64,000 nucleotides of DNA from a virus: positions 1-64,000 of the IMG/VR virus record IMGVR_UViG_3300032215_000643; one strand, 5' to 3'. Position 1 is the stretch's first letter; each line of letters begins with the position of its first letter. The notes under the pieces were generated by a model. That model ran no database searches and had not been told where the DNA came from. It worked only from the letters and a program-made list of their open reading frames with translations. Of this stretch, positions 26,259-59,922 are shown piece by piece. Both the position numbers and the translations under genes were made by a program.

Positions 26259-26266
26259 GGATATAC

Positions 26267-27022: not shown

Positions 27023-27033
27023 AAGGAGAAAAC

Positions 27034-28227: not shown

Positions 28228-28229
28228 TT

Positions 28230-38472: not shown

Positions 38473-38765
38473 AATCTCAGAAATGTGCCTATGCTGAATG
38501 TGGGAAAGAATTTGTAAAGTCTACTCACAATCAAAAGTATTGTTCAGATGATTGTTGTAGGACTGCAACTAACTTAAAGATTCGTGAAAAGTATTATGAG
38601 AATAAAGAGCGTTTAAATGGTAAAAAAAGAATATGTTCTAAGTCCCGTTGTAAGAATGTTTTGAGTAGATATAATGTTTTAGATATATGTCAAGAGTGTC
38701 AGGGTAAAGTTGAAATAGATCAAAGAAGTAAATTAATTGGAATGTTGAAAAGTGTCTCTGGCTAA
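38469..38765 (+). CDS. Cys-rich zinc-finger protein
   Basis: C...CGKEF.....QKYCS..C and a second CxxxxC/CxxC set. Confidence 0.7.
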   Translation: MKSQKCAYAECGKEFVKSTHNQKYCSDDCCRTATNLKIREKYYENKERLNGKKRICSKSRCKNVLSRYNVLDICQECQGKVEIDQRSKLIGMLKSVSG

Positions 38766-39318
38766 ACTTCATAAGTCAAAGGCTCATAGAATTCTGGGTA
38801 TAGATGCTAGTACGTTGAGCATCGCTTTTTGTATTTTAGAAGATAGTAAGCCTGTTTCTTATGGTGAAATAACTTTTGAAGGTTCTGACGTTTATGAAAG
38901 AATGTTGGATGCTAAAAGAAAAATTCGGGCGTTGAAAAATCTTGGTATGTTTGATGTAGATTTTGTGGCAATTGAGGCTGGCGTTGTTGTGAAGTCTATT
39001 CATATTGGTATTAAGATGGCCTATATCTTTGGTGTGATTATGGCAGAGTTGCTTGAGAATAATATTGAGGTTGTTGAGTGTCATCCTATAACGTGGCAGT
39101 CTTTTATTGGTAATAAGAATTATACTAAAGTTCAGAAGCAGGCAGTAAAAGATGAATTTCCCGGTAAATCTGAGACATGGTATAAAAATAAAATCAGACA
39201 GAACAGGAAAGCATTTACTTTACAGTTTATGCATGATAAGGGTATAATTACTACTAGCGATAATGTTGCTGACGCAGCGGGTCTGGCTTGGTACGCCTCC
39301 CATAATCTTACGAGGTAA
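38752..39318 (+). CDS. ruvC: RuvC-like Holliday junction resolvase
   Basis: ILGIDAS, VAIE, P.TW, DNVADA catalytic pattern. Confidence 0.85.
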   Translation: MSLAKLHKSKAHRILGIDASTLSIAFCILEDSKPVSYGEITFEGSDVYERMLDAKRKIRALKNLGMFDVDFVAIEAGVVVKSIHIGIKMAYIFGVIMAELLENNIEVVECHPITWQSFIGNKNYTKVQKQAVKDEFPGKSETWYKNKIRQNRKAFTLQFMHDKGIITTSDNVADAAGLAWYASHNLTR

Positions 39319-39319
39319 T

Positions 39320-39469
39320 ATGGTTAAACTTTATGAGTCAAAGCAATGGCTTTATAAAAGGTATGTAGTTGAAAAGAAAAATATTGTGCAGATGGCGCAA
39401 GAAGCAAACTGTAGTCATATGACTATTCAGCGTGCCTTAGAAAAAACGGGCCTTAGTAGAAAAAAATAA
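39320..39469 (+). CDS. Small HTH protein
   Basis: Start revised to ATG 39320 (SD GAGG); WL...Y...K....MA.E..CS..TI.RAL. Confidence 0.65.
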
Positions 39470-39470
39470 T

Positions 39471-40502
39471 ATGAAAAAAGCATTGATAACTGGGGTTACT
39501 GGGCAGGACGGTTCTTATTTAGCGGAACTTCTTCTTAGTAAGGGGTACGATGTTCATGGTATGAAGAGAAGGTCTTCTTCTATTAATACTGAAAGAGTTA
39601 ATCATATTTATGATAACAAGAATTTTAAGTTGCATTATGGAGATTTAACAGATGCAACTAGTACAATGCATTTGATTTCTGATATTCAACCAGATGAAAT
39701 ATATAATCTTGGTGCCCAGAGTCATGTGCAGGTTTCATTTGAGATCCCAGAATATACTGCACAGGTAGATGCTATTGGAACTTTAAGAATTTTAGAGGCA
39801 GTTCGTCTTTTAGGCATGAAAGATAGAACTAGGATTTATCAAGCATCTACTTCAGAATTGTACGGTTTAGTTCAGGAAGTTCCTCAAAAGGAGACTACTC
39901 CTTTTTATCCAAGGTCACCTTATGGTGTCGCAAAATTGTATGGTTTTTGGATTGTAAAAAATTATAGAGAATCTTATGGGCTTCATGCAAGTTCTGGAAT
40001 TTTATTTAATCATGAATCTCCACGTCGTGGTGAGACGTTTGTAACGAGAAAGATCGTAATGGGATTGGCAAATATTTTTGCGGGTAATCAAGAAGTGATA
40101 AGACTTGGTAATTTAAATGCTCGCAGAGATTGGGGCCATGCTAAAGATTTTGTGGAAGCCATGTGGTCGATGTTGCAGCAAGAAGTTCCAGATGATTATG
40201 TTATTGCTACTGGAAAACAGTACTCTATTAAAGAGTTTGTTGAGGCTTGTTCTCCATATTTTAATATGTCAATTGAATGGCGTGGCGAGGGTGTTAATGA
40301 AGTAGGAATTGATACTAATACGGGTAATCTTGTTATTGAAGTTGATTCACAATATTTTAGGCCGTCTGAAGTTGATAGCCTTTTGGGTGATGCAAGTAAG
40401 GCAAGACGTAATCTATCTTGGGAACCTAAAATAACATTTGAAGAATTAGTAAGTGACATGTGTGTGAGTGAATTAAATTTAATAAAAAGGAATAGTAAAT
40501 GA
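39471..40502 (+). CDS. gmd: GDP-mannose 4,6-dehydratase
   Basis: [63 protein letters not shown]. Confidence 0.97.
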
Positions 40503-41116
40503 AATCAAAAGAGAAGTTTGTAATTAGTAAGAGTGAAGTTCGTAGTTTTGATCGTTCCCACCTTAACGAATTTGCTTTGTATGAAGGAAATTTTGAAGGT
40601 CAGGGTTTTATTCTGGACCGTGACCCAAGGTATGAAGACCCATATAACTTGTATGGATATCTTTCTCATAAATTTAACAATACGACTATTCTGGATATTG
40701 GTACGCGCAGTGGCAATTCGGCGATTTCCTTTTCTTCCAATCCAAACAACAAGGTAATATCTTTTGATATTAAAGAATGGCCTAGTTTTAAAAATCTAAA
40801 GAAAGATAATATTGAACTCCGACTTGGAGATTTTATGCAAGATACAAGCATCAATTATGAAGAAGTATCCATTATCATGATTGATGTTGATCCTCATGAT
40901 GGGCTACAAGAGCCTCCCATGCTAGAGTTTTTGCGTAACATAGGTTGGAGTGGATTGTTATTACTTGATGATACTGGACCAAACCTGTTCCCTGCTATCT
41001 ACTATATGTGGATGACTATTCCAGAAGAAAAATTTGACCTAACAGATATTGCACATTTTTCAGGAACCGGATTGCTAAATTTTGGGGACAAGTACGACAT
41101 AGAGATAGTAGAATAA
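40499..41116 (+). CDS. Class I SAM-dependent methyltransferase
   Basis: [10 protein letters not shown] motif I, SFD, ID.DPH, LLLDD. Confidence 0.75.
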
Positions 41117-41940
41117 TGAGAATCCTAGTTCTTGGTTCTGATGGGCAGATAGGTTCGCACCTTGTCAAATATTTAGAAAACCTTAATCATACAGTGGTTC
41201 GTTGGGATAATGCTTCTGAGTTTGAAAAAGATTTACGCATAGTCAATGACAAGTTTGAGGTAGAGGTTTCTGATTCTGATTTTGTTTTCTTTCTCGCCTT
41301 TGATGTTGGTGGCTCAAGGTACCTTTCAAAATACCAGAATACATATAGTTTTTTAAATAATAATATTAAAATAATGGATAATGTGTTCAATGTTTTAAAC
41401 AAAACTAAGAAACCTTTTATATTTTTAAGTAGTCAGATGTCGAATATGATTCATTCTCCTTATGGAATAACTAAATTGGTTGGTGAATCGTATACTAAAA
41501 CTATTGGTGGATTGTCAGTAAGGTTGTGGAATGTTTACGGTTTAGAGAGTGATCCCGAAAAGTTTCATGTGATTACTGATTTTATTAATATGGCTAGAAA
41601 TGATGGGTATATTAAAATGATGACTGATGGAAAAGAATCAAGAGATTTGCTTTATGTAGAAGATTGTTGCGAGGGTCTGGTTAATGTTATGGAAAATTAT
41701 GAAAATATTTCAAGTGAAGAAAACCTTTGCCTAGCGTCATTTGAAAATGTTACGATCAAAGAGGTCGCAGATATTATTGCAGAAAAGTATTCTGTAAATG
41801 TAATTGCTGGTGATAAAATTGATTTAATTCAATTAGATATGAAGAATCAACCCGGTCAAGAAATTTTAAAATACTGGAGTCCTAAGACAGCGTTACGGGA
41901 TGGTATCTATAAAATAGTAGAAGAAATGGAAAATAGATGA
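41116..41940 (+). CDS. NAD-dependent nucleotide-sugar epimerase/dehydratase
   Basis: LGSDGQIG, YGITK (YxxxK), R.WNVYG, RD.LYVED. Confidence 0.88.
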   Translation: MRILVLGSDGQIGSHLVKYLENLNHTVVRWDNASEFEKDLRIVNDKFEVEVSDSDFVFFLAFDVGGSRYLSKYQNTYSFLNNNIKIMDNVFNVLNKTKKPFIFLSSQMSNMIHSPYGITKLVGESYTKTIGGLSVRLWNVYGLESDPEKFHVITDFINMARNDGYIKMMTDGKESRDLLYVEDCCEGLVNVMENYENISSEENLCLASFENVTIKEVADIIAEKYSVNVIAGDKIDLIQLDMKNQPGQEILKYWSPKTALRDGIYKIVEEMENR

Positions 41941-42749
41941 TAAAAGTAGATTTACATTCTGCTGAAATTTTTACTGAAGTTCGTGCTACTTCTTTAAATA
42001 ATTTTAATAAAAATTTTCATTGGGTTCAAGATGGTACGGGTGACATTGAAATGTTTATAGATAGGCATATTCAATTAAAAACTAGTGATTTTCATTCTTT
42101 ATCTAAGCCTTCATACGGATGGCTATTGGAATCAAAAACTATTATTCCCGAAATTTATCAATGGGTGGAGGATTATAAAAGTTATCTTAAGTTAAACTTT
42201 AAAGGAATTTTTACTCATGATGCTGAACTGTCTAAAAAAGATCCAGACTTTTTTCTTTTAACAATGTGTAACGCAGCACCTTGGGTCACTGATAGGAATA
42301 TTCATCCTAAAAGCAAATTGATATCAATGATTAGTTCTGATAAAAGTTTTGCAGAGGGGCATAGGCATAGGTTGTCCTTGGTGGATAAGTATAGGAATGG
42401 GGTAGATCTTTATGGAAGAGGGATTAGAACTTTTAGTCGTAAAGAGGAACCCCTAGTGGATTATATGTTTTCTATTAATATAGAAAATGCTAAGTATGAT
42501 AATTATTTTACAGAAAAACTTACAGACTGTTTTGCCTGCGGAACGGTACCTATTTTTTATGGTTCTGATGCTATAGTTGATGAGATGTTTGATAGTAGGG
42601 GCGTTATTAAACTTACCCATGATTTTTCAATTGATCAAGTATCTAAAGATTTGTATTACGATATGATGCCCTATATTAAAAATAATTTTGAAATCGCTTG
42701 TCAAATTAAAACAGCGGAAGATTACATAGAAGAAAAATATTTTGCATGA
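41937..42749 (+). CDS. Glycosyltransferase family 10 (alpha-1,3/4-fucosyltransferase-like)
   Basis: YMFSINIEN....YFTEKL.DCF..GTVPIFYG signature. Confidence 0.85.
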   Translation: MIKVDLHSAEIFTEVRATSLNNFNKNFHWVQDGTGDIEMFIDRHIQLKTSDFHSLSKPSYGWLLESKTIIPEIYQWVEDYKSYLKLNFKGIFTHDAELSKKDPDFFLLTMCNAAPWVTDRNIHPKSKLISMISSDKSFAEGHRHRLSLVDKYRNGVDLYGRGIRTFSRKEEPLVDYMFSINIENAKYDNYFTEKLTDCFACGTVPIFYGSDAIVDEMFDSRGVIKLTHDFSIDQVSKDLYYDMMPYIKNNFEIACQIKTAEDYIEEKYFA

Positions 42750-44116
42750 TTGAATTAATAATTTTTGACCTAGATGGTGTTCTAGTGGATATTAAAAAGT
42801 TGCATTTTGATGCTTTAAATGAAGCGTTGTCTGAAGTTGACTCTAATTATATTATTAATCATGATGAGCATTTATCTATTTATGATGGGCTTAAGACTAA
42901 AGAAAAATTAAATATGCTTACTAGGAACAAGGGTTTGCCCGAAAAAGATCATGATAAAGTGTGGTCTAGAAAACAGCAATTGACAATGGAAATGCTAGAT
43001 TGTTTAGAGCCTAATGAAGATTTAATTTATGCAATTAAAAAATTAAAAGAGTCTGGATTCAAGGTTGCTTGCTGTTCTAATTCAATCGTGTCTACAATAA
43101 ATAAAGCATTAGAAAAAATTGGTGTAATTGAATATTTTGATAATATTCAGGGAAATGATAATGCAATAAACTCTAAGCCCCATCCTGAATTGTACTGGAG
43201 GGCGATGATTACTTTAAGCGTAATGCCAGAGAAAACTTTAATTGTAGAAGATTCTCCGATTGGCTTGCTTGCAGCAAAGCGGTCTGGTGCCCATTTTATC
43301 AGGGTAAATAATAGTAATGATTTGAAAATAGAAAGATTAGAAAGTGAATTAAATTCTTTAGATAGCAAATTAGAAGTTAATTGGAAAGATCCACGGTTAA
43401 ATGTTGTGATCCCAATGGCTGGTAGTGGAACAAGGTTTCAAAAGGCTGGCTATACTTTCCCTAAACCATTGATTGATGTAAATGGAAAGCCGATGATTCA
43501 GTGGGTAGTAGATAATCTTGGGATAGAAGCAAATTTTATATTTATTGTGCAAAAAACTCATAGAGAAAAGTACAATCTTGATTCTATGCTTAATTTAATT
43601 TCACCTAAATGTAAGATAGTAGAAGTTGATGGGATTACTGATGGGGCTGCTTGCACTACGTTGCTTGCTAAAGAGTATATAAATAATGATGCCCCGATGC
43701 TAATGGCAAATTCAGATCAGTTTTTAGAGTGGGCTTCTTCTGAATTTCTTTATAAGATGTATGAGCAAGGCAATGATGGTGGGATTGTTACTTTTAAGTC
43801 TACTCACCCTAAATGGTCGTTTGCTAAGACAGATGATTTTGGTAAAGTTTTAGAGGTAGCAGAAAAGAATCCTATATCTGATAATGCTACTGCTGGAATT
43901 TATTATTGGAAGCATGGAAGTGATTATGTTAAATACGCTGAGCAGATGATTGCTAAAGAAGTTCGCGTGAATAATGAATTTTATGTGTGTCCAGTTTTTA
44001 ATGAAGCGATAGAAGATGGTAAGGATATTAAAATTTTTAATATTGAAAAGATGTGGGGTCTGGGTACACCAGAAGATTTGAATCATTTTTTGAACAATTA
44101 TGAAAGAAAACATTAA
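42746..44116 (+). CDS. HAD phosphatase fused to sugar-phosphate nucleotidyltransferase
   Basis: FDLDGVL, KPHP and EDS HAD motifs, then IPMAG.G.RF...PKPLI, G..YW, NEFY and GLGTPEDL. Confidence 0.88.
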   Translation: MIELIIFDLDGVLVDIKKLHFDALNEALSEVDSNYIINHDEHLSIYDGLKTKEKLNMLTRNKGLPEKDHDKVWSRKQQLTMEMLDCLEPNEDLIYAIKKLKESGFKVACCSNSIVSTINKALEKIGVIEYFDNIQGNDNAINSKPHPELYWRAMITLSVMPEKTLIVEDSPIGLLAAKRSGAHFIRVNNSNDLKIERLESELNSLDSKLEVNWKDPRLNVVIPMAGSGTRFQKAGYTFPKPLIDVNGKPMIQWVVDNLGIEANFIFIVQKTHREKYNLDSMLNLISPKCKIVEVDGITDGAACTTLLAKEYINNDAPMLMANSDQFLEWASSEFLYKMYEQGNDGGIVTFKSTHPKWSFAKTDDFGKVLEVAEKNPISDNATAGIYYWKHGSDYVKYAEQMIAKEVRVNNEFYVCPVFNEAIEDGKDIKIFNIEKMWGLGTPEDLNHFLNNYERKH

Positions 44117-44946
44117 TGAAGAAGTCCTGTTTTGTTTGTCCTGTTCACCCTCCTAAATATCATTTTGCTGAGCAACTTGTTCAAAGTTATAATAATTTTT
44201 ATGAAGATTCAGATTTATTTTTGGTATTTTCAAATGTTGAGGAAAGACTGTTATTTGAAGAATTAACATTAAATAAGAATTTAAATTATAAGAGCATAAT
44301 TTTTTCAGAAACTTTAAGTGATTATCCTATTACACAAAAAAAGTTCTTTGGGCTTCAGTATGTGTTTGAGAATACGGATTTTGAAAAAGTTGGCGTGATA
44401 GATTGTGATTCAGTATTTATTAAAACTGTTGATTATGATTTCCTGTTTGATGAGTTTTATGAAAAGAAAAAGATTTATGGCACAACGCTTACAGAACATG
44501 GTGGTGTTTTGCCACCGGGAGCAATTAGAACAATAACTTCATCACCTCTTCCTCTTTTTAGTGAAGAAGATCAGAACGATATAATTTTAAAAACAAACAA
44601 TCTGAGTTTGTATTTTTGGTTTAATAATATTCCAATATATGAAAAAACTAATTTTAAAAATTTTATTGAGTATATTGATTATGATGGGAGTAAATTAAAT
44701 CCTGTAGGTTTGGATTTTGATTTTATTGTATATTGTTATTTCTTAATGATAAAAGATCTTATTGTTTTAGAGGATATGAATTTTGAAATAGAGTTGGGTT
44801 TTTTGGAAGAGCAAAAAAATATTCCTGTTGAAATTTTTGTGCCGTTGTTTCAAAAGATCGAACCGTTTTGGCTAACAAAACCTGAGTATCTTCCAGAAGA
44901 GATGTTAAAAAATGTTTTTATTAAATTTCATGTGGATCGTTTGTAG
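44116..44946 (+). CDS. Putative GT-A-type glycosyltransferase
   Basis: KKF.GL...VIDCDSVF (DxD) and glycan-cluster context. Confidence 0.45.
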   Translation: MKKSCFVCPVHPPKYHFAEQLVQSYNNFYEDSDLFLVFSNVEERLLFEELTLNKNLNYKSIIFSETLSDYPITQKKFFGLQYVFENTDFEKVGVIDCDSVFIKTVDYDFLFDEFYEKKKIYGTTLTEHGGVLPPGAIRTITSSPLPLFSEEDQNDIILKTNNLSLYFWFNNIPIYEKTNFKNFIEYIDYDGSKLNPVGLDFDFIVYCYFLMIKDLIVLEDMNFEIELGFLEEQKNIPVEIFVPLFQKIEPFWLTKPEYLPEEMLKNVFIKFHVDRL

Positions 44947-44951
44947 GTTAT

Positions 44952-45398
44952 GTGATTAAAATAATATGTCATCGTGGAAATATTGATGGTCCTGATCATT
45001 TAAAAGAAAATGATCCATCCTTTATTCAATCTGCATTGGACTTGGGTTTTGATGTAGAAGTAGATGTTTGGCTGATGGATGAAAAGTATTACCTTGGTCA
45101 TGATGAGCCGCAGTACGAGACTTCTTTGTTATGGTTAGAAGATCGTAGTGACAAATTGTGGATACATTGTAAGAATTTTGAAGCATTAAAGTCTTTTAGT
45201 TTAAATAATAATTTAAATTATTTCTGGCATCAAGAGGACAAGTTTACTTTGACATCTAAAAGATTTATTTGGACTTATCCAAATAACGAATTGGGTCAAA
45301 GTTCGGTGTGCGTATTGCCAGAAAAGGGATTTATTGGTACACTAGATAAGTGTCACGCTGTTTGCACCGATTATCCTATGAGGTATAGTGGATTTTAG
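44952..45398 (+). CDS. GDPD-like (PLC-like) phosphodiesterase
   Basis: ICHRGN..G...EN, GFDVEVDVW, LGHD.P, WIHCKN, CTDYP. Confidence 0.8.
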   Translation: MIKIICHRGNIDGPDHLKENDPSFIQSALDLGFDVEVDVWLMDEKYYLGHDEPQYETSLLWLEDRSDKLWIHCKNFEALKSFSLNNNLNYFWHQEDKFTLTSKRFIWTYPNNELGQSSVCVLPEKGFIGTLDKCHAVCTDYPMRYSGF

Positions 45399-46101
45399 TT
45401 TTGGAATCATAACCGATGGTTCTTCTGATCACAATATAAGTTTGATGATCGATAGTATTGAAAGAATGAATATTCCCAATTATGAAATAATTATAATTGG
45501 GAACTCTGCTATCTCAAGGAAGAATACTACAGTAGTCCCCTTCGCGGAAGAAGTTTTACAAATGTGGATTACTCATAAAAAGAATCTAATAACAAAAAAT
45601 GCTAAGTATGAGAATATAGTTTATTTACATGACTATATAATTTTTAATGAATATTGGTATCAAGGGTTTTTAATTCATGGAAATGATTTTAATGTCTGTA
45701 TGACAAAGATAATCAATTTAGATGGTAGTCGTTTTAGAGATTGGGTTCTTTGGCCTCATAATAATAATGACATGGACGCTCTTACTCATCCATCACTTCA
45801 ATGTTTAATCCCATATGAAGTTAGAAATCTTTCAAAATACATGTATATTTCTGGTTCTTATTGGGTTGCAAAAAAGACACTCATGGAAGAATTCCCTTTG
45901 GATGAGAGCCTTGTCTGGGGTCAGGGGGAAGATGTTGAATGGTCGTTTCGGGTTAGAGATAAGTTTGATTTTTCTATGAATGAATTGTCTAGTGTCCATT
46001 TGCTGAAGTATAAGCCAGCAGTATTTTATCCTCCAGATGAGAATACGCTTGAGTTGTTAAAGAAATTTGGTAATGATACAGAAGAATTGGAAGTTTTATG
46101 A
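45388..46101 (+). CDS. Glycosyltransferase, GT2-like
   Basis: FGIIT, YEIIIIG, KKN.....KYE.IVYLHDY, GEDVEWS.R. Confidence 0.75.
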   Translation: MDFSFGIITDGSSDHNISLMIDSIERMNIPNYEIIIIGNSAISRKNTTVVPFAEEVLQMWITHKKNLITKNAKYENIVYLHDYIIFNEYWYQGFLIHGNDFNVCMTKIINLDGSRFRDWVLWPHNNNDMDALTHPSLQCLIPYEVRNLSKYMYISGSYWVAKKTLMEEFPLDESLVWGQGEDVEWSFRVRDKFDFSMNELSSVHLLKYKPAVFYPPDENTLELLKKFGNDTEELEVL

Positions 46102-46739
46102 TACATTGCATAGGAGATAGTCATTCCGCATTTTTTAGTGGTGTGGAAGATATGCAACCACAGTGGCCCAGTATTGCATCGAATGCTTTGCCTTGGTTTA
46201 AGAGTTACAGAATTGGCCCTGCGACAGCATATAATTTAGACAGTAAGCGGGATCTGATAGAGTCTATTTACTTTTCTGGTCTAGTTGCAGAGAACGATTC
46301 TGTAATGTTTTGTTTTGGTGAAGTTGATTGTCGCGCACATATAATAAAGCAGGCTGCCTTGCAGGGCCGGGGGTTCCATTCGGTTGTAGAAGAATGTGTT
46401 AACCGTTACATACGTTCTATTGAATATTACGAGAACTATGGTAGAAAAATTTTGGTTTGGGGTCCAATCGCTTCTTGGAATGATAGTAAACCTTACACTG
46501 GTCCATCTTATGGGACAAATTTAGAAAGAAATCAAGTTTCAAAAATGTTTAATGAAATTCTAAGTAAAGAATGTGAACAACGCGGTTACACGTTTGTTTC
46601 TATCTTTGAGAAAATGTTGAATGAAGATTCGACAACTAATACTTTATATCTAGACAATTGGGAAGGTTCTCATATGCATCTTTCTCAAACAGCCATGCCG
46701 ATGACGTTGGAAGTTTTTACAGAAAAGGGAATTATATGA
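46098..46739 (+). CDS. SGNH/GDSL-like hydrolase or acyltransferase
   Basis: IGDSH block I, GEVDCR, C-terminal D..H-type His. Confidence 0.7.
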   Translation: MIHCIGDSHSAFFSGVEDMQPQWPSIASNALPWFKSYRIGPATAYNLDSKRDLIESIYFSGLVAENDSVMFCFGEVDCRAHIIKQAALQGRGFHSVVEECVNRYIRSIEYYENYGRKILVWGPIASWNDSKPYTGPSYGTNLERNQVSKMFNEILSKECEQRGYTFVSIFEKMLNEDSTTNTLYLDNWEGSHMHLSQTAMPMTLEVFTEKGII

Positions 46740-47500
46740 ATTGGGATATAGAAAAACAATATGCTACAAATTATTTAACGTCATGTCTGATTGCAGCCTT
46801 AGATGATCAAACTTTTAATAATTTTAAAAAAGATCCATACTATCAGGGAATTTTAGAACATATATCTTATCAAGAGTCTTTATGGTATTTGGATAATCTA
46901 TTAGATGAAAATTTGATGTTGAATAATCTGGCAAAATTAAGAGAAAATGATAATTTTTGTAATGCAGAAATTTTGGATTATGAAAATATTGGAAAATTTT
47001 CTCCTTCTACTATAAGATATATAAAACAGTCTGTAGACATTGCTGTATTTTTTAAGGATAAGAATATTCGCAAAGTTTTTGAAATTGGTGGGGGGTACGG
47101 CGGTTTGTGTAAGACGTTGAATGTGTTTATAGATTTTGATGCTTATGTAATCGCAGATTTTGATAATTGTAATAAATTGTCTTCTAGGTATTTGAACTTG
47201 TTTAAAGAATTTGATAATAAAATTTTTTATCAAGATTGCGAGAATCTTAAAGAAGAAAATGATATTGATTTATTGATTAGTAATTATGCTGTTTCGGAAC
47301 TTGACTGGGATGGTCAATTGGAATATTATGAAAAAATTATTAAAAATTCAACAAATTTTTATATAACATATAATTTTATTAATAATTCAAGTAGCCCTTA
47401 TGAAAAATTTATTGAATTATGCAGCAAAGATTTTGATGTTGAAATTAAAGATGACAACCTTTTTTCAAACAGGGTCTTATTTGGCGTTAAGCGGGGATAA
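46736..47500 (+). CDS. Putative sugar O-methyltransferase
   Basis: Start revised to ATG 46736; RY, EIGGGYGG, DLLISNYAVSEL....Q..Y. Confidence 0.78.
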   Translation: MNWDIEKQYATNYLTSCLIAALDDQTFNNFKKDPYYQGILEHISYQESLWYLDNLLDENLMLNNLAKLRENDNFCNAEILDYENIGKFSPSTIRYIKQSVDIAVFFKDKNIRKVFEIGGGYGGLCKTLNVFIDFDAYVIADFDNCNKLSSRYLNLFKEFDNKIFYQDCENLKEENDIDLLISNYAVSELDWDGQLEYYEKIIKNSTNFYITYNFINNSSSPYEKFIELCSKDFDVEIKDDNLFSNRVLFGVKRG

Positions 47501-47505
47501 TCAGT

Positions 47506-48438
47506 ATGAATATTGATAGTTTAATTTATGTTGCTGGTCATAGAGGTTTAGTTGGCTCAGCCCTTGTTCGTCGTTTGAAAGAGCAGGGGTATACAAATAT
47601 TATTACTATGACTAGAAACGAGTTAGACTTGACTGATTCTGTTGCGACAGCAGAATTTTTTGCTAGTCATCGTCCCGAATATGTTTTTGACGCGGCAGCA
47701 AAAGTTGGGGGCATTTATGCCAACGATAATTATTCTGCAGAATTTATAAATGAAAATCTTTCTATTCAAACAAACTTAATTCATAATTCATGGAAGTATA
47801 GTGTCAAGAAATTTCTTTTTATGGGTTCTGTCTGTATTTATCCAAAATATGCTGAGTGCCCAGTTAAAGAAGATTCTCTTCTTACTGGAAAGTTGGAACC
47901 TACCAATGAGGCTTATGCAATTGCAAAAATAGCAGGAATTAAGATGTGTGAAGCCTATAATAAACAATATGGTTTTCAATGTTTATCTGTAATGCCATCC
48001 AATCTTTATGGACCTAACGACAAGTTTGATCCAGCCAACGGTCATGTTATTCCAGCAATGATAGTGAAGTTTCTATCAAGTACCGATCAGGTCACTTTTT
48101 GGGGTGACGGAAGCCCATATAGAGAATTTTTACATTCCGATGATATGGCAGACGCTTGCATTGTTTTGATGAACAGTTTAGAAACTGGTAATGCTGAGTT
48201 AATTAATATTGGTTCAGGAGACAATATTTCTATAAAAGATTTAGCAGAAAAAATATCTAAAGTTATTGGATACTCTGGTGAAATTAATTGGGATACGGTT
48301 AGACCCAATGGGACACCGATGAGGCCACTTGATTTTTCTAAAATAAAGAAACTAGGCTGGGAGCCAAAAGTTTCTTTAGATGAGGGGTTGAAGGAAACGG
48401 TGACTTGGTATAGAATGAACGAGGATGGTGTCAGGTGA
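47506..48438 (+). CDS. fcl: GDP-L-fucose synthase
   Basis: VAGHRGLVGSA, AAKVGGI, GSVCIYP, LEPTNEAYAIAK, P.NLYGPND.F, WGDGSP.REFLH.DD.A. Confidence 0.96.
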   Translation: MNIDSLIYVAGHRGLVGSALVRRLKEQGYTNIITMTRNELDLTDSVATAEFFASHRPEYVFDAAAKVGGIYANDNYSAEFINENLSIQTNLIHNSWKYSVKKFLFMGSVCIYPKYAECPVKEDSLLTGKLEPTNEAYAIAKIAGIKMCEAYNKQYGFQCLSVMPSNLYGPNDKFDPANGHVIPAMIVKFLSSTDQVTFWGDGSPYREFLHSDDMADACIVLMNSLETGNAELINIGSGDNISIKDLAEKISKVIGYSGEINWDTVRPNGTPMRPLDFSKIKKLGWEPKVSLDEGLKETVTWYRMNEDGVR

Positions 48439-49184
48439 TTAGTTTTAATAGTTTGGGTAGTCTTGGTCGTCTAGGAAATCAAATGTTTCAGTACGCCTCC
48501 TTAAAGGGCATTGCTAGGAATAGAGGGTTTGAGTTTTCTATTCCTTGGAGTCCATTCTTAGATCCTTGGCGTGACCATCAACTTTCTAATGTTTTTAAAT
48601 TACAAGATAATTTAATTTTAAATTCTCCAGAACAACCTTATACTGCTGAAGAAAAGTTTTTTGGTTTTGATTATGATTTGTTTAACTATGTTGAAGATAA
48701 TTCGGATCTTGTTGGCTATTTTCAAACAGAAAGATATTTTTCTCATATAAAGGATGAGATTTTAGAAGATTTTTCTTTTAAAGAAAAGTTTGATGATGTG
48801 GTTTCAGATTATTTTACAGTTATTCATGTGAGAAGGACAGACTATCTGGCTTTTAGCAATCATCATCCCACTTGCTCTTTAGATTATTACAAGGAAGCGA
48901 TGGACATTACTGGTGGACCTTTTCTTGTAGTCTCAGATGATATTGAATGGTGTCAAAAAAATATTACTGCTGATGAGTATTCTAAATCTTCCAATGTTAA
49001 AGATTTATATTTGATGAGTAAAGCAAAAAATAATATAATTGCTAATAGTTCTTTCAGTTGGTGGGGGGCATGGCTTAATCAAAACCCTAATAAAAAAGTT
49101 ATTGCTCCAAATAAATGGTTTGGTCCTGCTTATGATCATTATAATTTGGAAGATCTTATCCCAAAGGAATGGATTAAACTGTAA
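48435..49184 (+). CDS. Glycosyltransferase family 11 (alpha-1,2-fucosyltransferase-like)
   Basis: GRLGNQMFQYA, GYFQ, IHVRRTDY, SDD, IIANSSFSWWGAWL. Confidence 0.92.
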   Translation: MISFNSLGSLGRLGNQMFQYASLKGIARNRGFEFSIPWSPFLDPWRDHQLSNVFKLQDNLILNSPEQPYTAEEKFFGFDYDLFNYVEDNSDLVGYFQTERYFSHIKDEILEDFSFKEKFDDVVSDYFTVIHVRRTDYLAFSNHHPTCSLDYYKEAMDITGGPFLVVSDDIEWCQKNITADEYSKSSNVKDLYLMSKAKNNIIANSSFSWWGAWLNQNPNKKVIAPNKWFGPAYDHYNLEDLIPKEWIKL

Positions 49185-49795
49185 TGATAAATAGTATTGT
49201 TGAGAAAGCATATTGTATTTCTTTAGAAAGAAGGCCCGACCGATGGGTCGCAGCAGAAGAACAGTTTAAAAATAATGGTATGGTTGTTGAAAAATTTTTA
49301 GCAACAGATGGGGCTTTGCTAGAGCCAAACCCAGCCTTACACAGCGGGGAAGCAGGATGCTTAGACTCGCATAGAAGAGTCTTAAAGGACGCAATAGATA
49401 ATGATTTAGAGTGCATCGCAGTGTTTGAAGATGATGTGTATTTTGTTGAAAACTTTGCTTCGCGGTTTGATGAATATTTTCGTGAAGTTCCCTCAGATTG
49501 GCAATTCTTATACTTAAGTTTTAATCGTCATTCTGGTCAGACTATGAGGGTTACAGATAGGGTTGTTAGAATTTCTAATGCTTATTCAGCACATGCATTG
49601 TTTTTAAAACGAGATGCGATAAACTATTCTTATAACTTAATGTTAAATGATTCATTGCCTTCAGATGTGTACTTTGGAATGGCTCAGTATGCGTATCCAG
49701 CATATGGGCCTTCTAGAATGCTTGCAGGTCAAAGAACTGGTTTTTCAGATATTGTTCAGCAAGATGTTAATTACGATTGGATTTATGGATTATGA
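49184..49795 (+). CDS. Glycosyltransferase family 25
   Basis: YCISL.RR.DR, A.DG, GE.GC..SH, VFEDD. Confidence 0.88.
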   Translation: MINSIVEKAYCISLERRPDRWVAAEEQFKNNGMVVEKFLATDGALLEPNPALHSGEAGCLDSHRRVLKDAIDNDLECIAVFEDDVYFVENFASRFDEYFREVPSDWQFLYLSFNRHSGQTMRVTDRVVRISNAYSAHALFLKRDAINYSYNLMLNDSLPSDVYFGMAQYAYPAYGPSRMLAGQRTGFSDIVQQDVNYDWIYGL

Positions 49796-50355
49796 TTTCT
49801 ACAGATACTTTAAGAAATATTTTTAACGATAGTGGTAGTGATAAGTCTAGTTCTCATAATTATGAGGTTGCTTATTCTCAAATTTTGCCGGAAAAAATTG
49901 ATTCAATGTTAGAAGTTGGAATTTCTAATGGTCATGACGGTAAAAGTTCTTTGTGGGCTTGGAGTGTGCTTTATCCAGATGCAAAAATTTATGGCGCGGA
50001 TAATGATATTGTTAAACTTATAAATGATAATAATATTGAAAGTTATAGGTTAGATCAATCTGACGTTCTTCAGTTGTTTGAATTTTCTAAGTTATTTGAA
50101 AAAAAATTAGATGTTATTGTTGATGACGGAAGTCACGTTTTTAAACATGCTTTTCTAACTTATCAATTTCTTTTTCATCTTACAGATCTATATATTATTG
50201 AAGATATTGCAAAGAATTATAATGGGTGGCAGCAGACAGTTGCTGATTGGAAAAATGAATTAGATGGTCAAGAAAATATTCTGTATGGAGTAATTGACAC
50301 TCTCCCTGAAGAAAAAATGGATGACAGTGTTGTTATTTGGATAAAAAGGAAATAA
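49792..50355 (+). CDS. Sugar O-methyltransferase (MycE-like class I)
   Basis: Start revised to ATG 49792; SDK...H.Y...Y, LEVGI, SL.AW, DQSD, IVDDGSH, YIIED. Confidence 0.8.
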   Translation: MISTDTLRNIFNDSGSDKSSSHNYEVAYSQILPEKIDSMLEVGISNGHDGKSSLWAWSVLYPDAKIYGADNDIVKLINDNNIESYRLDQSDVLQLFEFSKLFEKKLDVIVDDGSHVFKHAFLTYQFLFHLTDLYIIEDIAKNYNGWQQTVADWKNELDGQENILYGVIDTLPEEKMDDSVVIWIKRK

Positions 50356-50359
50356 TTTA

Positions 50360-51118
50360 ATGTTTTTTAATTCAATAGAAAATTTGATTAAGGTCAATGT
50401 TCCAGAATTTCCTGTTGTCATTCCGACATTTAATAATCCAACATATTTAAAGAAAACTGTTGATTATTTTTCCGAAAGGGGCTTTGAAATCATTGTATTA
50501 GATAATGCTTCAACTTACCCTCCAATGCTAGAGTTGTTGTTTAATTTATCTGAAGAGGATAATATTTTTGTCGTTGCTTTGCCAAGCAATTATGGTCCAA
50601 GATATTTTTATGAAAATAAAAATTTTTATTCATGGCTTCCTAATCATTTTTTTGCAACAGATCCAGATTTAGAATTTAACAAAAATTTGAAAAAAGAAAA
50701 TTGGCTTGAGTTAATTGAAGTTAGCAGAACACTTGGAGTATATAAAGTGGCGGCTGCCCTTACCTTGGATATTGAAGATAGTGAACATGAACTTGATGTT
50801 TTGATTTCTAGTATGAATACTACTGTTAGAAAAATAGAAAGTGGATATTATGAAAATATTTGCATGGTCACAGATCAGGGTGACACAGTTTACATAGCCC
50901 CAACAGATACCACCATGTCTCTCTATAATAAAGAATTTGAAGGACATTTCATGCTTTCTTGTGTTAGAGTTTCAGGGAAATTTGACACATTGCATTACGG
51001 TTGGTTGACTAATCCACCCATCCCAAAAGAGGAAAAAGATTATTATACAGAAGCCTGTAGAGATAATTTTTATTCATCAGGGGAAGTTGTTAAAAGAGGT
51101 CAAGGACCAACTTACTAA
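50360..51118 (+). CDS. Glycosyltransferase, GT2-like
   Basis: VVIPTFN, IVLDNASTYPP, N.G, TDPD, DTT..LY. Confidence 0.75.
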   Translation: MFFNSIENLIKVNVPEFPVVIPTFNNPTYLKKTVDYFSERGFEIIVLDNASTYPPMLELLFNLSEEDNIFVVALPSNYGPRYFYENKNFYSWLPNHFFATDPDLEFNKNLKKENWLELIEVSRTLGVYKVAAALTLDIEDSEHELDVLISSMNTTVRKIESGYYENICMVTDQGDTVYIAPTDTTMSLYNKEFEGHFMLSCVRVSGKFDTLHYGWLTNPPIPKEEKDYYTEACRDNFYSSGEVVKRGQGPTY

Positions 51119-51702
51119 TGCCTAAATTTTCAGTAATAGCCGTAGATTATGAAAAACATGTTCCTCGCCAAGGAATGATTGATGGATTAAAATCTCTTGC
51201 AGAGCAAACCTTTCAAGATTTTGAACTCATCATTTGTCATGATGGTCCAAAGGAAGTTCCCTATGAAGAAGAAGTAGGCTTTAAAGAATTAGGGATTTCC
51301 CCTATAATTATAAATACACCACATCATGTTGGTGACTGGGGTCATTCAAGCCGTGATTTTTCTATGAGGCAGGCTACTGGTGAATACTTTATTCAATTTA
51401 ATATAGATAATAAATTTTACCCCACCGCTTTTGAAAAAATAAATGATTGTATTGAAGAAACTTCTTCAAGAGTGGTTATTTTTACAATCCAACACTTCAA
51501 AGAGGGTGGTAGATTTATTAAGGGTGTCCCTCCAACACACGCTCAAATTGATTGTATGCAATTAGTTGCACATAGAAGTGTGTGGGAAGAAATTGGTTAT
51601 TGGTATAACAAAAATAATGAATCTGATGGTTATATTTACACAAATATTGGACAAGAATATCCGTATGTCCATATTGATGAATGTTTAGGGGAAAATTATT
51701 AA
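51118..51702 (+). CDS. GT2-like glycosyltransferase, tandem paralog 1
   Basis: FSVIAVDY, SL..Q.F.DFELII.HDGP, WGHSSRD, FNIDN, IDCMQLV, ends GENY. Confidence 0.8.
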   Translation: MPKFSVIAVDYEKHVPRQGMIDGLKSLAEQTFQDFELIICHDGPKEVPYEEEVGFKELGISPIIINTPHHVGDWGHSSRDFSMRQATGEYFIQFNIDNKFYPTAFEKINDCIEETSSRVVIFTIQHFKEGGRFIKGVPPTHAQIDCMQLVAHRSVWEEIGYWYNKNNESDGYIYTNIGQEYPYVHIDECLGENY

Positions 51703-52289
51703 TGAAGTTTTCTGTTATTGCAGTTGACTATGAAAAGCATGTTCCAAGAGAGCGCATGGTTAAAGGTTTGCAATCTTTAGCGAATCAATCATTTCAAGAT
51801 TTTGAGTTGATTGTAATCCATGATGGTCCTAAAGAAATTCCTTATGAGGAAGAGTTTGATTTTTCTGTTTTCCCAAACGAGGTAAAGTTTTTAAATACAG
51901 AAACAAGAATGGATAATTGGGGCCATTCAAGTAGAGATTTAGGTATGAGAAATGCTTCTGGTGAATTCTTTTTCCATTTTAATATTGATAATCTTCTTTA
52001 TCCAGATTGTTTTGAAAAAATAAATAATAAGTTAGAGGAAACAACCGCATTGGTTTTATTATTTGCTATTCTTCACTACAAGATTAATAATGGGACTTTT
52101 CCTTTTTACGGTCTTCCTCCTGTTTATCATAACATTGACGCTATTCAATTGGTTGCTCACAGAGAAATTTGGAGCAGTGTTGGATATTGGTATGATTTGC
52201 ATGAACAGGGTGATAGTGCAATCTATGAGAAAATGTGTAAAGATTATGGTTGGGCCTATATAGATGAAGTTTTAGCGGAGAATTATTAA
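51702..52289 (+). CDS. GT2-like glycosyltransferase, tandem paralog 2
   Basis: Same motifs as paralog 1; start revised to the coupled ATG at 51702 (MKFSV). Confidence 0.8.
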   Translation: MKFSVIAVDYEKHVPRERMVKGLQSLANQSFQDFELIVIHDGPKEIPYEEEFDFSVFPNEVKFLNTETRMDNWGHSSRDLGMRNASGEFFFHFNIDNLLYPDCFEKINNKLEETTALVLLFAILHYKINNGTFPFYGLPPVYHNIDAIQLVAHREIWSSVGYWYDLHEQGDSAIYEKMCKDYGWAYIDEVLAENY

Positions 52290-52871
52290 ATGAAAGTTTC
52301 TATTATTGCAGTTGACTATGAGCATCACGTTCCAAGGGACGGTGCTTACAGGGGTTTGCTTTCAATTTCTGAGCAAACTTCTAAAGATTTTGAACTTATA
52401 ATAGTTCATGATGGACCCAAGGAAATTCCTTATGAGGAAGAGTTTGATTTTAAAGAATTAAATTTAAATCCAGTAATAACCAATACTTCTCACAGGATGA
52501 ATGATTGGGGGCATTCTTCTAGGGATTGGGGGATGCGTATGGCAAACGGTGATTATTTCCTGCAATTCAATATTGATAATGTTCTTTACCCAGATGCCAT
52601 AGAAGAAATTTGTAAAAAGATTGATGGATCTGGTACGCCAATAATTATTTTTAGTATTATCCATCACAAAGATAATGATAAGGTCTATACAGGAATACCC
52701 CCAGACCTGTACAATATAGATTGTATGCAACTTGTCGGTCACAGGGATATGTGGCAAGAATTGAACTATTGGTACGATAAACGAGATAGTTCTGACGGTT
52801 GGATCTATGAAGTTATTACTAGAAAATATAATTATTCAAATATTGAAAAATGTTTAGGCGAAAACTACTAG
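52290..52871 (+). CDS. GT2-like glycosyltransferase, tandem paralog 3
   Basis: Same motifs as paralogs 1 and 2. Confidence 0.8.
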   Translation: MKVSIIAVDYEHHVPRDGAYRGLLSISEQTSKDFELIIVHDGPKEIPYEEEFDFKELNLNPVITNTSHRMNDWGHSSRDWGMRMANGDYFLQFNIDNVLYPDAIEEICKKIDGSGTPIIIFSIIHHKDNDKVYTGIPPDLYNIDCMQLVGHRDMWQELNYWYDKRDSSDGWIYEVITRKYNYSNIEKCLGENY

Positions 52872-52878
52872 GAGAATT

Positions 52879-53892
52879 GTGAAAAGGGTTTTACTAACCG
52901 GAGCGTCTGGTTTTGTGGGAAGCCATGTACTGCGTCATATTATTTTAAATACAGATTGGTTTGTGGTTTGTCCAACAACCTTTACTCACAAGGGGTTACA
53001 GGATAGAATCAGGGTTGCTTTGGATGACCTTCCAGATGCGTACAAGCGGGTAAAAATTATTCGTTGTGACTTTACCTCTCCAATTTCTCCCATTACTGCC
53101 AGAGAGTTTGGTAACGTGGATCTTGTTATTAATGTGGCAAGTGAAAGTCATGTTGATAGAAGTATCGAAGAGCCTGCCCAGTTTGTTATTAATAATGTGT
53201 CATTGATTTGTCACGTTCTTGATTGGGCTAGGAATTCAAATATTGAAAAGTTTATTCAAGTTTCTACTGATGAAGTTTATGGTCCTGCTCCTGATGGGTA
53301 TGCTCATATTGAATGGGAAGATCAGCATCTACCTAGTAATCCTTATTCTGCTTCAAAGGCTGCTCAGGAAGATATTGCTTTCTCCTATTGGAGAACTTAT
53401 GGAGTCCCGTTAATTATTACTAATACTATGAATATTATTGGTGAGACTCAAGACCCAGAGAAATATATTCCAATGACTATTAAAAATGTTATTGATGGAG
53501 AAAAAGTTTTAATTCATGGTTCTCCTGATGATGGTAGGATTGGTAGTCGTTTTTATTTACATGCGCGTAATCAGGCTGATGGATTACTTTATGTCTCTAA
53601 CTTGCCAGCACCTGCATATGGGGAATCTAATATGCCAGCAAGGTATCATATTGCGGGTGAGCGTGAAGTTGATAATTTAGAGATTGCAAAATTAATTGCA
53701 GAATATGTTGGTAAACCTCTTAATTATGAAATTGTTGATTTTCATTCTTCAAGGCCCGGTCATGATCTAAGATATGCTCTTAATCAAAATAGGATTGAAA
53801 ATGCGGGATGGAAGATGCCTCTTCCGTTTGAAGAATCTTTAGAAAGAACTGTTAAGTGGACATTAAATCATCCCGAATGGCTCATGATCTGA
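52879..53892 (+). CDS. rmlB: dTDP-glucose 4,6-dehydratase-like SDR
   Basis: TGASGFVG, ASESHVDRSI, STDEVYG, PYSASKA, PEK.IP, RPGHDLRYAL. Confidence 0.85.
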   Translation: MKRVLLTGASGFVGSHVLRHIILNTDWFVVCPTTFTHKGLQDRIRVALDDLPDAYKRVKIIRCDFTSPISPITAREFGNVDLVINVASESHVDRSIEEPAQFVINNVSLICHVLDWARNSNIEKFIQVSTDEVYGPAPDGYAHIEWEDQHLPSNPYSASKAAQEDIAFSYWRTYGVPLIITNTMNIIGETQDPEKYIPMTIKNVIDGEKVLIHGSPDDGRIGSRFYLHARNQADGLLYVSNLPAPAYGESNMPARYHIAGEREVDNLEIAKLIAEYVGKPLNYEIVDFHSSRPGHDLRYALNQNRIENAGWKMPLPFEESLERTVKWTLNHPEWLMI

Positions 53893-53917: not shown

Positions 53918-54958
53918 ATGAAACTGTATCGACAAGAAAACCAACTGTGCTTCGATGACATTTTGTTGGTCCCGAATCCATCTGCTGTAGAAAGTAGAAA
54001 AAACGTAGATTTGTCTATGTCAATTGGATATGGGAATAGAAAGATTGATTTGTATTTGCCTGTTATTTCTTCTCCTATGGATACGGTTACCGAATCTGAA
54101 ATGGCTGTTGAGGTTGCTAAGTTTGGTGGTCTTGGAATTATTCATAGGTATTCTAAGATTGAAGATCAGGCGGCTCAGGTTTTTGAAGTTTCTAAAAAAG
54201 GTTATGCTGTTGGTGCATCTGTTCCAACGTCAGTTAGAGATTCAGTGCTTCCTCAAGTAAAGTCATTGGTTTATGTCGGTGCTAAAGTAATTTTAGTTGA
54301 TACTGCAAATGGTCATAACTTTGCTGCGATTAAGGCTGTTTCAGAAATTAGAAAAGAGTTTCCAGATATTCATATTATGGCTGGAAATGTTTCTACTTGG
54401 GACGGGTTCCTTCATCTTTCTCAGGCTGGAGCAGATTCAGTTCGCGTAGGTATCGGCGGTGGTTCATGTTGCAGTACACGAATTATGACTGGTCATGGCA
54501 TTCCGACATTGGCTTCTATTATGGAAATTTATGAATATCAAGAACGTCTAGATCTTCCTACGTCTATTATTGCAGATGGAGGAATTAGAAATTCTGGAGA
54601 TATGGTAAAGTCATTTGCGGCAGGCGCTGATGCAGTCATGGTTGGATCTATGCTTTCTGGTCACACAGAGTCACCGGGTAATGTTTTTAGGGAAGATGGA
54701 AAAGATTACAAGCGAATTCGTGGCATGGCAAGTTCTCATGCTCAAAAGGATTGGCGTGGTTCTGTAAGTGGTGAAGAGGGCATTTCAACTAAGGTCTTGT
54801 TTAAGGGTCCAGCAGAGAACACTCTTAATTCTATTAGAAACGGTATTTCAAGTGGTTGTTCTTATGCAGGTGTAGAGAGATTAGAAGAGTTAAGTATTAC
54901 ATCTCAGTATGTAAAAGTTTCACCTTTATCTGTAAAGGAGAGTTTGCCTCATGTATGA
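53918..54958 (+). CDS. IMP dehydrogenase / GMP reductase family (no CBS domains)
   Basis: FDDILLVP, SSPMDTVTE, GGLGIIHR, D.ANGH, AGNV, VGIGGGSCCSTR, IIADGGI, GMAS, EG. Confidence 0.9.
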   Translation: MKLYRQENQLCFDDILLVPNPSAVESRKNVDLSMSIGYGNRKIDLYLPVISSPMDTVTESEMAVEVAKFGGLGIIHRYSKIEDQAAQVFEVSKKGYAVGASVPTSVRDSVLPQVKSLVYVGAKVILVDTANGHNFAAIKAVSEIRKEFPDIHIMAGNVSTWDGFLHLSQAGADSVRVGIGGGSCCSTRIMTGHGIPTLASIMEIYEYQERLDLPTSIIADGGIRNSGDMVKSFAAGADAVMVGSMLSGHTESPGNVFREDGKDYKRIRGMASSHAQKDWRGSVSGEEGISTKVLFKGPAENTLNSIRNGISSGCSYAGVERLEELSITSQYVKVSPLSVKESLPHV

Positions 54959-55461: not shown

Positions 55462-55745
55462 AAAAGAAACAACAAATTTCGGCTCGTATCCCTTACAACA
55501 ATCCAGATATAACAGTTTATACAGAATTAGAATTTGGTAAAGACGTTATTAAGCCGGGGGATAAGATTAAAATTAAGAATGCTCGCGGATATTTTGTTTT
55601 TCATAAGTGGGCACATAATTCTCGTCTTGATGTGACATGGATTGATTGTATGAATCCAAACACTGGTGAGTTCAGGTCTTTTTATATGGATAACCTTAAG
55701 GGTGTTCATCGTGCTAAAAAGAGTATAAGGAAGAAACTTGTCTAA
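55458..55745 (+). CDS. Hypothetical phage protein
   Basis: Start revised to the GTG overlapping the previous TGA. Confidence 0.6.
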   Translation: MKKKQQISARIPYNNPDITVYTELEFGKDVIKPGDKIKIKNARGYFVFHKWAHNSRLDVTWIDCMNPNTGEFRSFYMDNLKGVHRAKKSIRKKLV

Positions 55746-59921: not shown

Positions 59922-59922
59922 T

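Follow-up and report, generated by a model that had tools for sequence, protein, structure and literature searches.

The first 64 kb of the IMG/VR virus contig IMGVR_UViG_3300032215_000643 (78,922 bp, estimated completeness 64%), hereafter the window, contain an island of sugar-related genes between positions 39471 and 53892. The island is organized as one co-directional operon on the + strand, in which 19 open reading frames (ORFs) abut or overlap by 1–22 nt (Table 1). These ORFs encode Gmd, Fcl, glycosyltransferases of families GT10, GT11, GT25, and GT2 (four copies), two further GT-A-like enzymes, three methyltransferases, an SGNH-like protein, an SDR, an RmlB-like protein, a fusion of HAD and NTP-transferase domains, and a mini glycerophosphodiester phosphodiesterase (GDPD)-like protein. 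An earlier reading of the window, made without database searches (the original prediction), had described the same inventory as a candidate virion glycosylation system of 18 genes. All gene types, their positions, strand, and tight packing were right item by item, whereas the count should have been 19, as is also the sum of its own list.

Table 1. Coordinates and supporting evidence for the island genes (g1–g19) and the features that frame them.
Feature	Position	Strand	Evidence
RuvC-like resolvase, left anchor of cargo site	38752–39318	+	Pfam RuvC; 94% identity to closest relative (G001) stops exactly at 39318
Replaced segment (apparent swapped cassette)	39319–52292	+	blastn against G001; GC shift
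g1, Gmd	39471–40502	+	TIGR01472, 555 bits (cut-off 415); 74% identity to cyanophage DSL-LC03 gmd
g2, putative class I S-adenosylmethionine-dependent methyltransferase (weak)	40499–41116	+	Weak NCBIfam match (E 1e-3); VISFDI motif
g3, short (274 aa) nucleoside diphosphate (NDP)-sugar epimerase/reductase, SDR	41116–41940	+	Pfam Epimerase, 96.5 bits; PDB matches to sugar-nucleotide epimerases and reductases
g4, GT10-type (alpha-1,3/4) fucosyltransferase-like	41937–42749	+	Glyco_transf_10 C-terminal domain, 36.8 bits; motif IENAKYDNYFTEK
g5, HAD (beta-phosphoglucomutase-like)/sugar-1-phosphate nucleotidyltransferase fusion	42746–44116	+	HAD_2, 108.9 bits; NTP_transferase, 43.5 bits
g6, predicted GT-A fold glycosyltransferase, no Pfam family	44116–44946	+	AlphaFold2 (AF2) model, predicted local distance difference test score (pLDDT) 92.3; Foldseek; invariant D96
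g7, half-size GDPD-like	44952–45398	+	Invariant HRG, E36, D38, H50; GDPD profile and fold matches
g8, probable GT-A-like glycosyltransferase (lead only)	45388–46101	+	ESM Atlas neighbours with GT2 or GT7C families
g9, SGNH/GDSL-like esterase or acyltransferase (weak)	46098–46739	+	Lipase_GDSL_2, 20.9 bits (below cut-off 32.9); N-terminal GDS motif
g10, NanM-like sugar O-methyltransferase	46736–47500	+	TIGR04371, 42.9 bits (cut-off 44); FEIGGGYGG motif
g11, Fcl-like GDP-L-fucose synthase	47506–48438	+	NF047922, 416.9 bits over 301/308 positions (cut-off 500); SDR motifs
g12, GT11-type (alpha-1,2) fucosyltransferase-like	48435–49184	+	Pfam, 93.7 bits; HVRRTDY, SSFSWWGAWL
g13, GT25 glycosyltransferase	49184–49795	+	Pfam, 57.3 bits; phrog_2835
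g14, TylF/MycE-type sugar O-methyltransferase	49777–50355	+	PDB 3ssm (E 2.3e-7), 8ia9
g15–g18, four tandem GT2	50360–51118, 51118–51702, 51681–52289, 52290–52871	+	Glycos_transf_2, 27.9–44.7 bits, all above cut-off
g19, RmlB-like NDP-hexose 4,6-dehydratase	52879–53892	+	TIGR01181, 217 bits (below cut-off 365); 92–94% identity in L016 and G001
IMPDH/GMP-reductase-family gene	53918–54958	+	Pfam IMPDH, 323.6 bits; under every NCBIfam equivalog cut-off
Conserved 174-aa and 611-aa genes, right anchor of cargo site	55738–58094	+	63–99% identity in 80 related loci

The GDP-L-fucose pathway that had been proposed for the island was recovered by profile searches. The first gene, g1, scores above the Gmd equivalog cut-off and carries the motifs GVTGQDG (GxxGxxG) and YGVAK (YxxxK), while g11 is clearly Fcl-like, with a nearly full-length match, the motifs GHRGLVG and YAIAK, and 52–56% identity to fcl of other viral modules, although it remains below the curated cut-off. 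From their sequences, these two enzymes can be predicted to convert GDP-mannose to GDP-L-fucose. Two candidate users of this nucleotide sugar are encoded in the same operon. The GT10-type g4 matches PF00852 above the cut-off of 23.9 and displays the alpha-1,3-fucosyltransferase motif FSINIENAKYDNYFTEK at residues 178–194 (pattern FxxxFENxxxxxYxTEK), which here reads IENAxxxxYFTEK; an N-terminal GT10 domain was not detected in it by Pfam, and it is 41–48% identical to cyanophage and marine-virus proteins. The GT11-type g12 matches PF01531 (cut-off 23.9) across profile positions 38–295 of 298, and shares 45–47% identity with cyanophage GT11. In addition, the HAD/nucleotidyltransferase fusion, the RmlB-like dehydratase, and the short SDR could supply a second NDP-6-deoxyhexose.

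Several of the other island enzymes were characterized through structure models and distant homology, and g2, g6, g8, g9, and g10 were all without a PHROG family. For g6, the predicted structure points to a GT-A fold enzyme: TarP, the WrtF fucosyltransferase, glycogenin, and SpsA were all matched with a Foldseek probability of 1.0, and the best fold matches also included TarS and RmlT, though TarP, the top structural match, reached a TM-score of only 0.35–0.39. The half-size GDPD-like g7 matched a GDPD structure both by profile (E 0.0023) and by fold (AF2 pLDDT 96.8, Foldseek GDPD structures at E 2e-3), and belongs to an environmental family with at least 1837 homologous clusters (E ≤ 1e-3). 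A protein language model provided a lead for g8, which is probably a GT-A-like glycosyltransferase; its environmental family includes at least 1060 homologous clusters (E ≤ 1e-3), while no match was found in 50,697 phage records and a PDB profile search returned chance-level integrin matches only. No PDB matches were obtained for g2 and g9. The methyltransferase g14 shows about 30% identity to a methyltransferase of Mycobacterium phage Omega, which adjoins a glycosyltransferase. Its homologues in phage records number nine; six belong to phages or prophages of Mycobacterium, at least two of which (Omega and prophiFVLQ01-1) have the homologue beside a glycosyltransferase. The start of g10 is likely the ATG at 46736, which was preferred to a TTG at 46658.

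All of these enzymes appear to be soluble. No 19-residue window reached a Kyte-Doolittle value of 1.6 in any of the 19 island proteins, i.e., none has a hydrophobic segment, which bears out the earlier statement that the island encodes no membrane protein. Across the 78.9-kb contig, we found no initiating phosphoglycosyl transferase, flippase, polymerase, or ligase, and none of the membrane transferases, flippases, acetylases, or polymerases of the serotype-conversion type (GtrABC, Oac, Wzy/Iap). The sole polytopic membrane protein on the contig, a 431-aa protein with FAD and NAD domains encoded outside the window (66521–67816), was considered as a flippase and rejected, being ferric-reductase-like and not a glycan exporter. 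A GT-B-like glycosyltransferase (Glyco_trans_1_2 / 1_4) is encoded after the lysis genes (contig 64049–65185, L006:2049–3185), and only in the sub-lineage with large cassettes; considered as a possible initiating enzyme, it had no PDB sequence match. Taken together, the GDP-L-fucose pathway, about nine soluble glycosyltransferases, and three methyltransferases make a fucosylated, O-methylated oligosaccharide built in the cytoplasm the natural product of the operon, as had been proposed. We thus predict with high confidence that the products are GDP-fucose, probably a second 6-deoxyhexose, and a fucosylated and methylated oligosaccharide assembled by soluble enzymes.

Next, we evaluated the genomic context of the island across related phages in 89 related loci, which were gathered by anchoring on RuvC and the 611-aa gene. 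The island occupies a variable cargo site found throughout the lineage between RuvC and the conserved 611-aa gene, which ranges from empty to 16 kb. Among the 44 loci with RuvC and at least one right-anchor gene, RuvC and the 174-aa anchor (or, where this is missing, the 611-aa gene) lay between 315 bp and 9 kb apart, against 16.4 kb in this contig. Small cargos were also sugar-related, including GT25 with GT32, a single GT2 or GT4, or an epimerase, and consisted in one clade of a methyltransferase and a deoxynucleoside monophosphate (dNMP) kinase. This kinase is T4-type (PF21448) in three loci of one clade (L044, L045, and L072), where it accompanies a methyltransferase or GT25 and GT32.

The boundaries of the variable segment could be placed by comparison to the closest relative, a 95-kb genome (G001). 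Identity in blastn was 94.2% over 14.4 kb ending at the last base of RuvC, was limited to patches of 66–73% across 39471–52293, and was again 91.6% from 52293 onwards. The GC content (share of guanine and cytosine) also shifts, from 0.38–0.40 in the flanks to 0.31–0.35 within the island. The cassette of G001 follows the same theme with other alleles (gmd 62% identical, GT10 42%, GT11 45%, and GT25 as well) and extra genes, including FkbM- and type-11 methyltransferases, while a third relative with flanks 87–91% identical carries another, shorter cassette. Based on these alignments, the left 13 kb of the island reads as a swapped cassette, and its right end (the last GT2 and the RmlB-like gene, together with the IMPDH-family gene) as a conserved core. 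Such cassettes are apparently exchanged, because the flanks of these relatives are near-identical (87–95%) but the cassettes differ. The IMPDH/GMP-reductase-family gene itself has no CBS domain, directly follows the island, and is kept together with the right-hand core; possibly, it supplies guanine nucleotides for GDP-sugars.

Similar gene sets were then found in other viruses. With g8 as seed, we identified 79 further viral loci, which include g5 (70 loci), g7 (57), GT10 (50), GT11 (45), fcl (44), gmd (39), and GT25 (30), and in which micro-synteny is kept for g5-g7-g8 and for GT10-GT11-GT25, with g7 and g8 adjacent in 26 cases. The corresponding contigs are up to 344 kb long with a GC content of 25–41%, and none of the 79 loci has backbone genes of the present lineage within 10 kb. 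Among cultured phages, GT10, GT11, gmd, and g5 are 41–74% identical to proteins of the cyanophages S-T4, S-SCSM1, P-SSM2, S-SM2, S-CAM9, and DSL-LC03 and the siphovirus S-SKS1, which have comparable islands, and g5 shows 56% identity over its full length to cyanomyovirus proteins; at the nucleotide level, megablast of the island against cultured phages returned no match. When 185,579 species genomes were searched for a GT11 donor, the best matches were 31–45% identical and scattered across phyla, with no donor or host signal. Hence, the core module (gmd, fcl, GT10, GT11, GT25, the HAD-NTP fusion, the GDPD-like gene, and the GT-A gene) appears to be a mobile viral gene set and not host-derived, because its genes are closest to those of phages of different hosts, the module recurs on 79 other viral contigs showing no flanking gene of this lineage within 10 kb, and cellular GT11 homologues are distant.

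The phage carrying the island is siphovirus-like, with a GC content of 37% and all contig genes on the + strand. The contig opens with a giant tape-measure gene with an M23 peptidase domain, followed by tail and fibre genes, then by DnaB, primase, a DnaE-type polymerase, RecA, a PD-(D/E)XK nuclease, and RuvC, after which the island follows; downstream come the IMPDH-family gene, the strongly conserved 611-aa gene, a tRNA-Ile, a second fibre block, and an M15 endolysin. A WhiB-family protein of 106 aa, scoring above the Pfam cut-off, is encoded outside the window (contig 77324–77497, L096:1453–1773) and displays the pattern C-x25-C-x2-C-x5-C and a GVRGG turn. WhiB is considered to mark Actinobacteria as well as their phages (PMC10202952). 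Because of this gene and of a DnaE-type polymerase 56% identical to that of Streptomyces phages (BillNye), the contig is probably an actinophage despite its 37% GC, and its host most likely a low-GC aquatic actinobacterium. The backbone is that of a WhiB-bearing, siphovirus-like phage of about 100–120 kb.

On this basis, the island would be, in a lytic actinophage, a self-contained cassette for glycan synthesis that is exchanged horizontally; in the cytoplasm of infected cells, its enzymes would build a branched oligosaccharide carrying fucose and O-methyl groups. We propose that the acceptors are the proteins of the phage's own virion (capsid, tail tube, or fibres), which would be modified ahead of assembly or in its course, as happens in mycobacteriophages and chloroviruses, and we would put the probability of such a virion target at roughly 40%. 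The exchange of cassettes between near-identical phages would then give particles different glycan “serotypes”. A precedent comes from cluster O mycobacteriophages, in which an O-methyltransferase and three glycosyltransferases reportedly modify the capsid as well as the tail tube (PMC11600133, citing Freeman 2023). The present phage, probably one of Actinobacteria and with about nine glycosyltransferases and three methyltransferases, shares with this actinobacteriophage type the combination of tandem glycosyltransferases and an O-methyltransferase, and possible acceptors include a capsid protein with a Ser/Thr/Gly-rich C-terminal tail of 28–37 aa, a tail tube with Ser/Thr-rich loop insertions, and fibre proteins with 25–30% Ser+Thr. 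A virion target is also plausibly favoured by the lack of genes for lipid-linked initiation or export, and by a module that functions in phages whose hosts have unrelated envelopes.

Several observations weigh against a virion target. We evaluated whether the capsid tail co-occurs with the island in ten long contigs, and then in 80 capsid loci and 14 further long contigs. The tail, with a shared ..FGSVTHG..GTF/Y pattern, is kept in 78 of the 80 relatives whatever the cargo, is present in the near-complete G029 (99%) and G031 (97%) with little or no cargo, and is missing from the G012 clade, which has a GT25+GT32 cargo. The capsid tail thus does not track the cassette, and the co-occurrence put forward as a check in the original prediction turned out neutral, with contrasts that are few and phylogenetically clustered. 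Moreover, a core GT-B gene (phrog_2170; G001 3547–4581, L098) lies beside the ribonucleotide reductase gene in all near-complete genomes of the lineage, whether or not they hold cargo at the RuvC site, so that presence and absence of transferases cannot be cleanly contrasted. The island is located in the replication/recombination block, away from the structural genes, and no homology was detected between its glycosyltransferases and the mycobacteriophage enzymes, the weak match of the methyltransferase g14 being the only similarity found. The enzymes matched by the fold of g6, i.e., TarP, TarS, and RmlT, are soluble enzymes acting on lipid-linked host polymers, and a universal primer such as undecaprenyl-diphosphate (PP)-N-acetylglucosamine (GlcNAc) or another polyprenyl-PP-GlcNAc would equally explain a module that functions independently of the host. 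For the same reason, a virion target does not follow from the lack of a flippase and polymerase, as had been argued: TarP-like soluble phage enzymes glycosylate lipid-linked wall polymers that are then exported by the host. Overall, the original virion-glycan proposal stands in part, with the glycan enzymes and their solubility upheld, a probable actinophage setting in its favour, the flippase argument and the claim that known systems are smaller set aside, and the co-occurrence test pointing neither way. A broader version, in which the widely shared module coats virions with a fucosylated, methylated glycan from a dedicated locus recombined between near-identical genomes, as bacterial O-antigen and capsule loci are, is to us a possibility, although less likely than not.

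A second scenario, which we regard as a serious although minority possibility, is that the island remodels the host envelope. Here, the soluble enzymes would extend or decorate a lipid-linked wall glycopolymer (teichoic-acid-like or arabinogalactan-type, started by the host on polyprenyl-PP-GlcNAc) on the cytoplasmic side of the membrane, after which transporters and ligases of the host would bring the product to the surface. Competitor superinfection would thereby be blocked or progeny kept off debris, and cassette swapping would track the diversity of host surface glycans. The homologous cyanophage clusters are conventionally read in this way, as host cell-wall or surface modification, although without experiments (PMC9602691, PMC12801897). 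The scenario also fits the best fold matches of g6, since the prophage enzyme TarP, as well as TarS and RmlT, act in wall-teichoic-acid glycosylation without a membrane segment, as well as the GDPD-like g7, which hints at glycerophosphodiester (teichoic-acid-type) chemistry, the grouping of the island with early/middle DNA-metabolism genes, and a hypervariable cargo site that resembles bacterial O-antigen or capsule loci. Conversely, the contig has no initiating or export component, and the island genes are nearest to those of phages of unrelated hosts rather than to actinobacterial genes. With its own sugar-nucleotide supply, the phage would make a foreign glycan, which the exporters of the host would need to accept, and we know of no lytic phage that rebuilds the host surface via a multi-enzyme glycan pathway.

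Two further destinations were considered. The product may instead be attached to neither virion nor wall, whether as a glycolipid, as a free or secreted oligosaccharide, or as a sugar-nucleotide sink, and would alter host physiology or decoy defence lectins or grazers. Although no acceptor-specifying feature was found in the island proteins, and TylF/MycE- and NanM-type methyltransferases and SGNH enzymes also tailor small-molecule sugars, we consider this unlikely: no aglycone pathway, lipid-synthesis gene, or exporter lies nearby, and conservation of the module across many phage lineages argues for a phage-intrinsic role. Least probable by far is the transfer of sugars to modified genome bases as a protection against restriction, as nine transferases with fucosyltransferase motifs, three sugar O-methyltransferases, and a pair of 6-deoxyhexose pathways are far more than any DNA glycosylation system known to us comprises, a PF00303 ThyA-family hydroxymethylase is absent from this contig (G000), G001, G003, G005, and the complete G002 (which has only ThyX), and no dNMP kinase was found in G000, G001, or G002. 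This in spite of the fact that phage glycosyltransferases are often assigned such a role (PMC10202952; PMC12619734, citing Pyle 2024), that the island adjoins replication and recombination genes, and that a T4-type dNMP kinase occurs at the same site in one clade.

The gene content of the island is itself already known in phages. Its closest counterparts are the cyanophage “lipopolysaccharide (LPS) / cell-wall” clusters (P-SSM2, S-SCSM1, S-SCSM2R, S-T4, S-CAM9, and the siphovirus S-SKS1), which likewise combine gmd, fcl, GT10, GT11, GT25, GT2, methyltransferases, epimerases, and the HAD/NTP fusion in a tight cluster of soluble enzymes. For instance, gmd and fcl occur in S-SCSM1 alongside three fucosyltransferases and five other transferases (PMC9602691), and the cluster of S-SCSM2R includes 22 genes, 13 of which encode glycosyltransferases, GT10, GT11, and GT25 included (PMC12801897). 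These cyanomyoviruses thus carry equal or larger sets, contrary to the earlier suggestion that known phage systems have far fewer genes. Unlike these clusters in T4-like cyanobacterial myoviruses, the present island is found in a WhiB-bearing, siphovirus-like probable actinophage, at a fixed RuvC-adjacent site whose content is swapped between near-identical genomes, and its g8 is without a counterpart in cultured phage records.

Other systems share its setting or its chemistry. Mycobacteriophage cassettes (clusters F, O, and others; Freeman et al. 2023, as cited in the papers given below) also combine glycosyltransferases and an O-methyltransferase with an actinobacterial host and Ser/Thr-rich capsid or tail-tube segments, but comprise 3–4 genes, compared to 19 in the present island, which has sugar-nucleotide pathways and fucosyltransferases of its own (PMC11600133, PMC12619734, PMC13313380). 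In the present lineage, by comparison, the capsid tail does not co-vary with the cassette. The Staphylococcus aureus prophage enzyme TarP is similarly a phage-carried soluble GT-A, and shows that phage enzymes free of membrane segments can alter a Gram-positive surface; however, it is a single enzyme of a temperate phage which uses a host sugar nucleotide outside of any multi-step pathway. The chlorovirus PBCV-1 encodes GMD, GMER, and the soluble transferase/methyltransferase A064R in dispersed genes, and has N-linked capsid glycans. The two systems have in common GDP-fucose synthesis, soluble cytoplasmic transferases, and a fucose-containing, O-methylated glycan (predicted in the present case) made independently of host secretion or export; they differ in that PBCV-1, a giant virus of eukaryotes, has its glycans N-linked and its genes scattered instead of gathered in one swappable operon.

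Clusters of soluble sugar enzymes occur in many big phages, while experiments have established what they act on for a few mycobacteriophages and for giant viruses only. What the present locus adds is the setting in a low-GC probable actinophage, a fixed hypervariable locus with cassette swapping, and a module that would represent a mobile viral gene set, moving between phage lineages whose hosts have very different envelopes. The natural variants described here, with flanks 87–95% identical and different cassettes, provide a ready comparison for glycan function. If the glycan does coat the particle, surface glycans would be a variable, selected trait with a bearing on adsorption, decay, grazing, and phage immunogenicity, and the existence of glycan “serotypes” would imply strong diversifying selection on particle surface chemistry in lakes.

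Finally, we note several features of the locus and contig. In a promoter and terminator scan of 35–55 kb, site counts equalled those of shuffled sequences and therefore support no inference on timing; the best + strand site (39219–39248), just upstream of the operon, is not taken as evidence. At the start of the window, positions 3–5828 lie inside the tape-measure gene, whose homologue in G001 (18592–29625) encodes an unusually long protein of 3677 aa. The fibre-tip region at 58.4–59.9 kb (58408–59928) matches G001 DNA at 49.2–50.8 kb, which is the place of the window's first fibre block (23544–24954), and this fits a two-copy, exchangeable fibre cassette. Outside the window, the contig also encodes a secreted FMN_bind protein with a DUF11/DUF7507 Ig-like domain (72070–73071).

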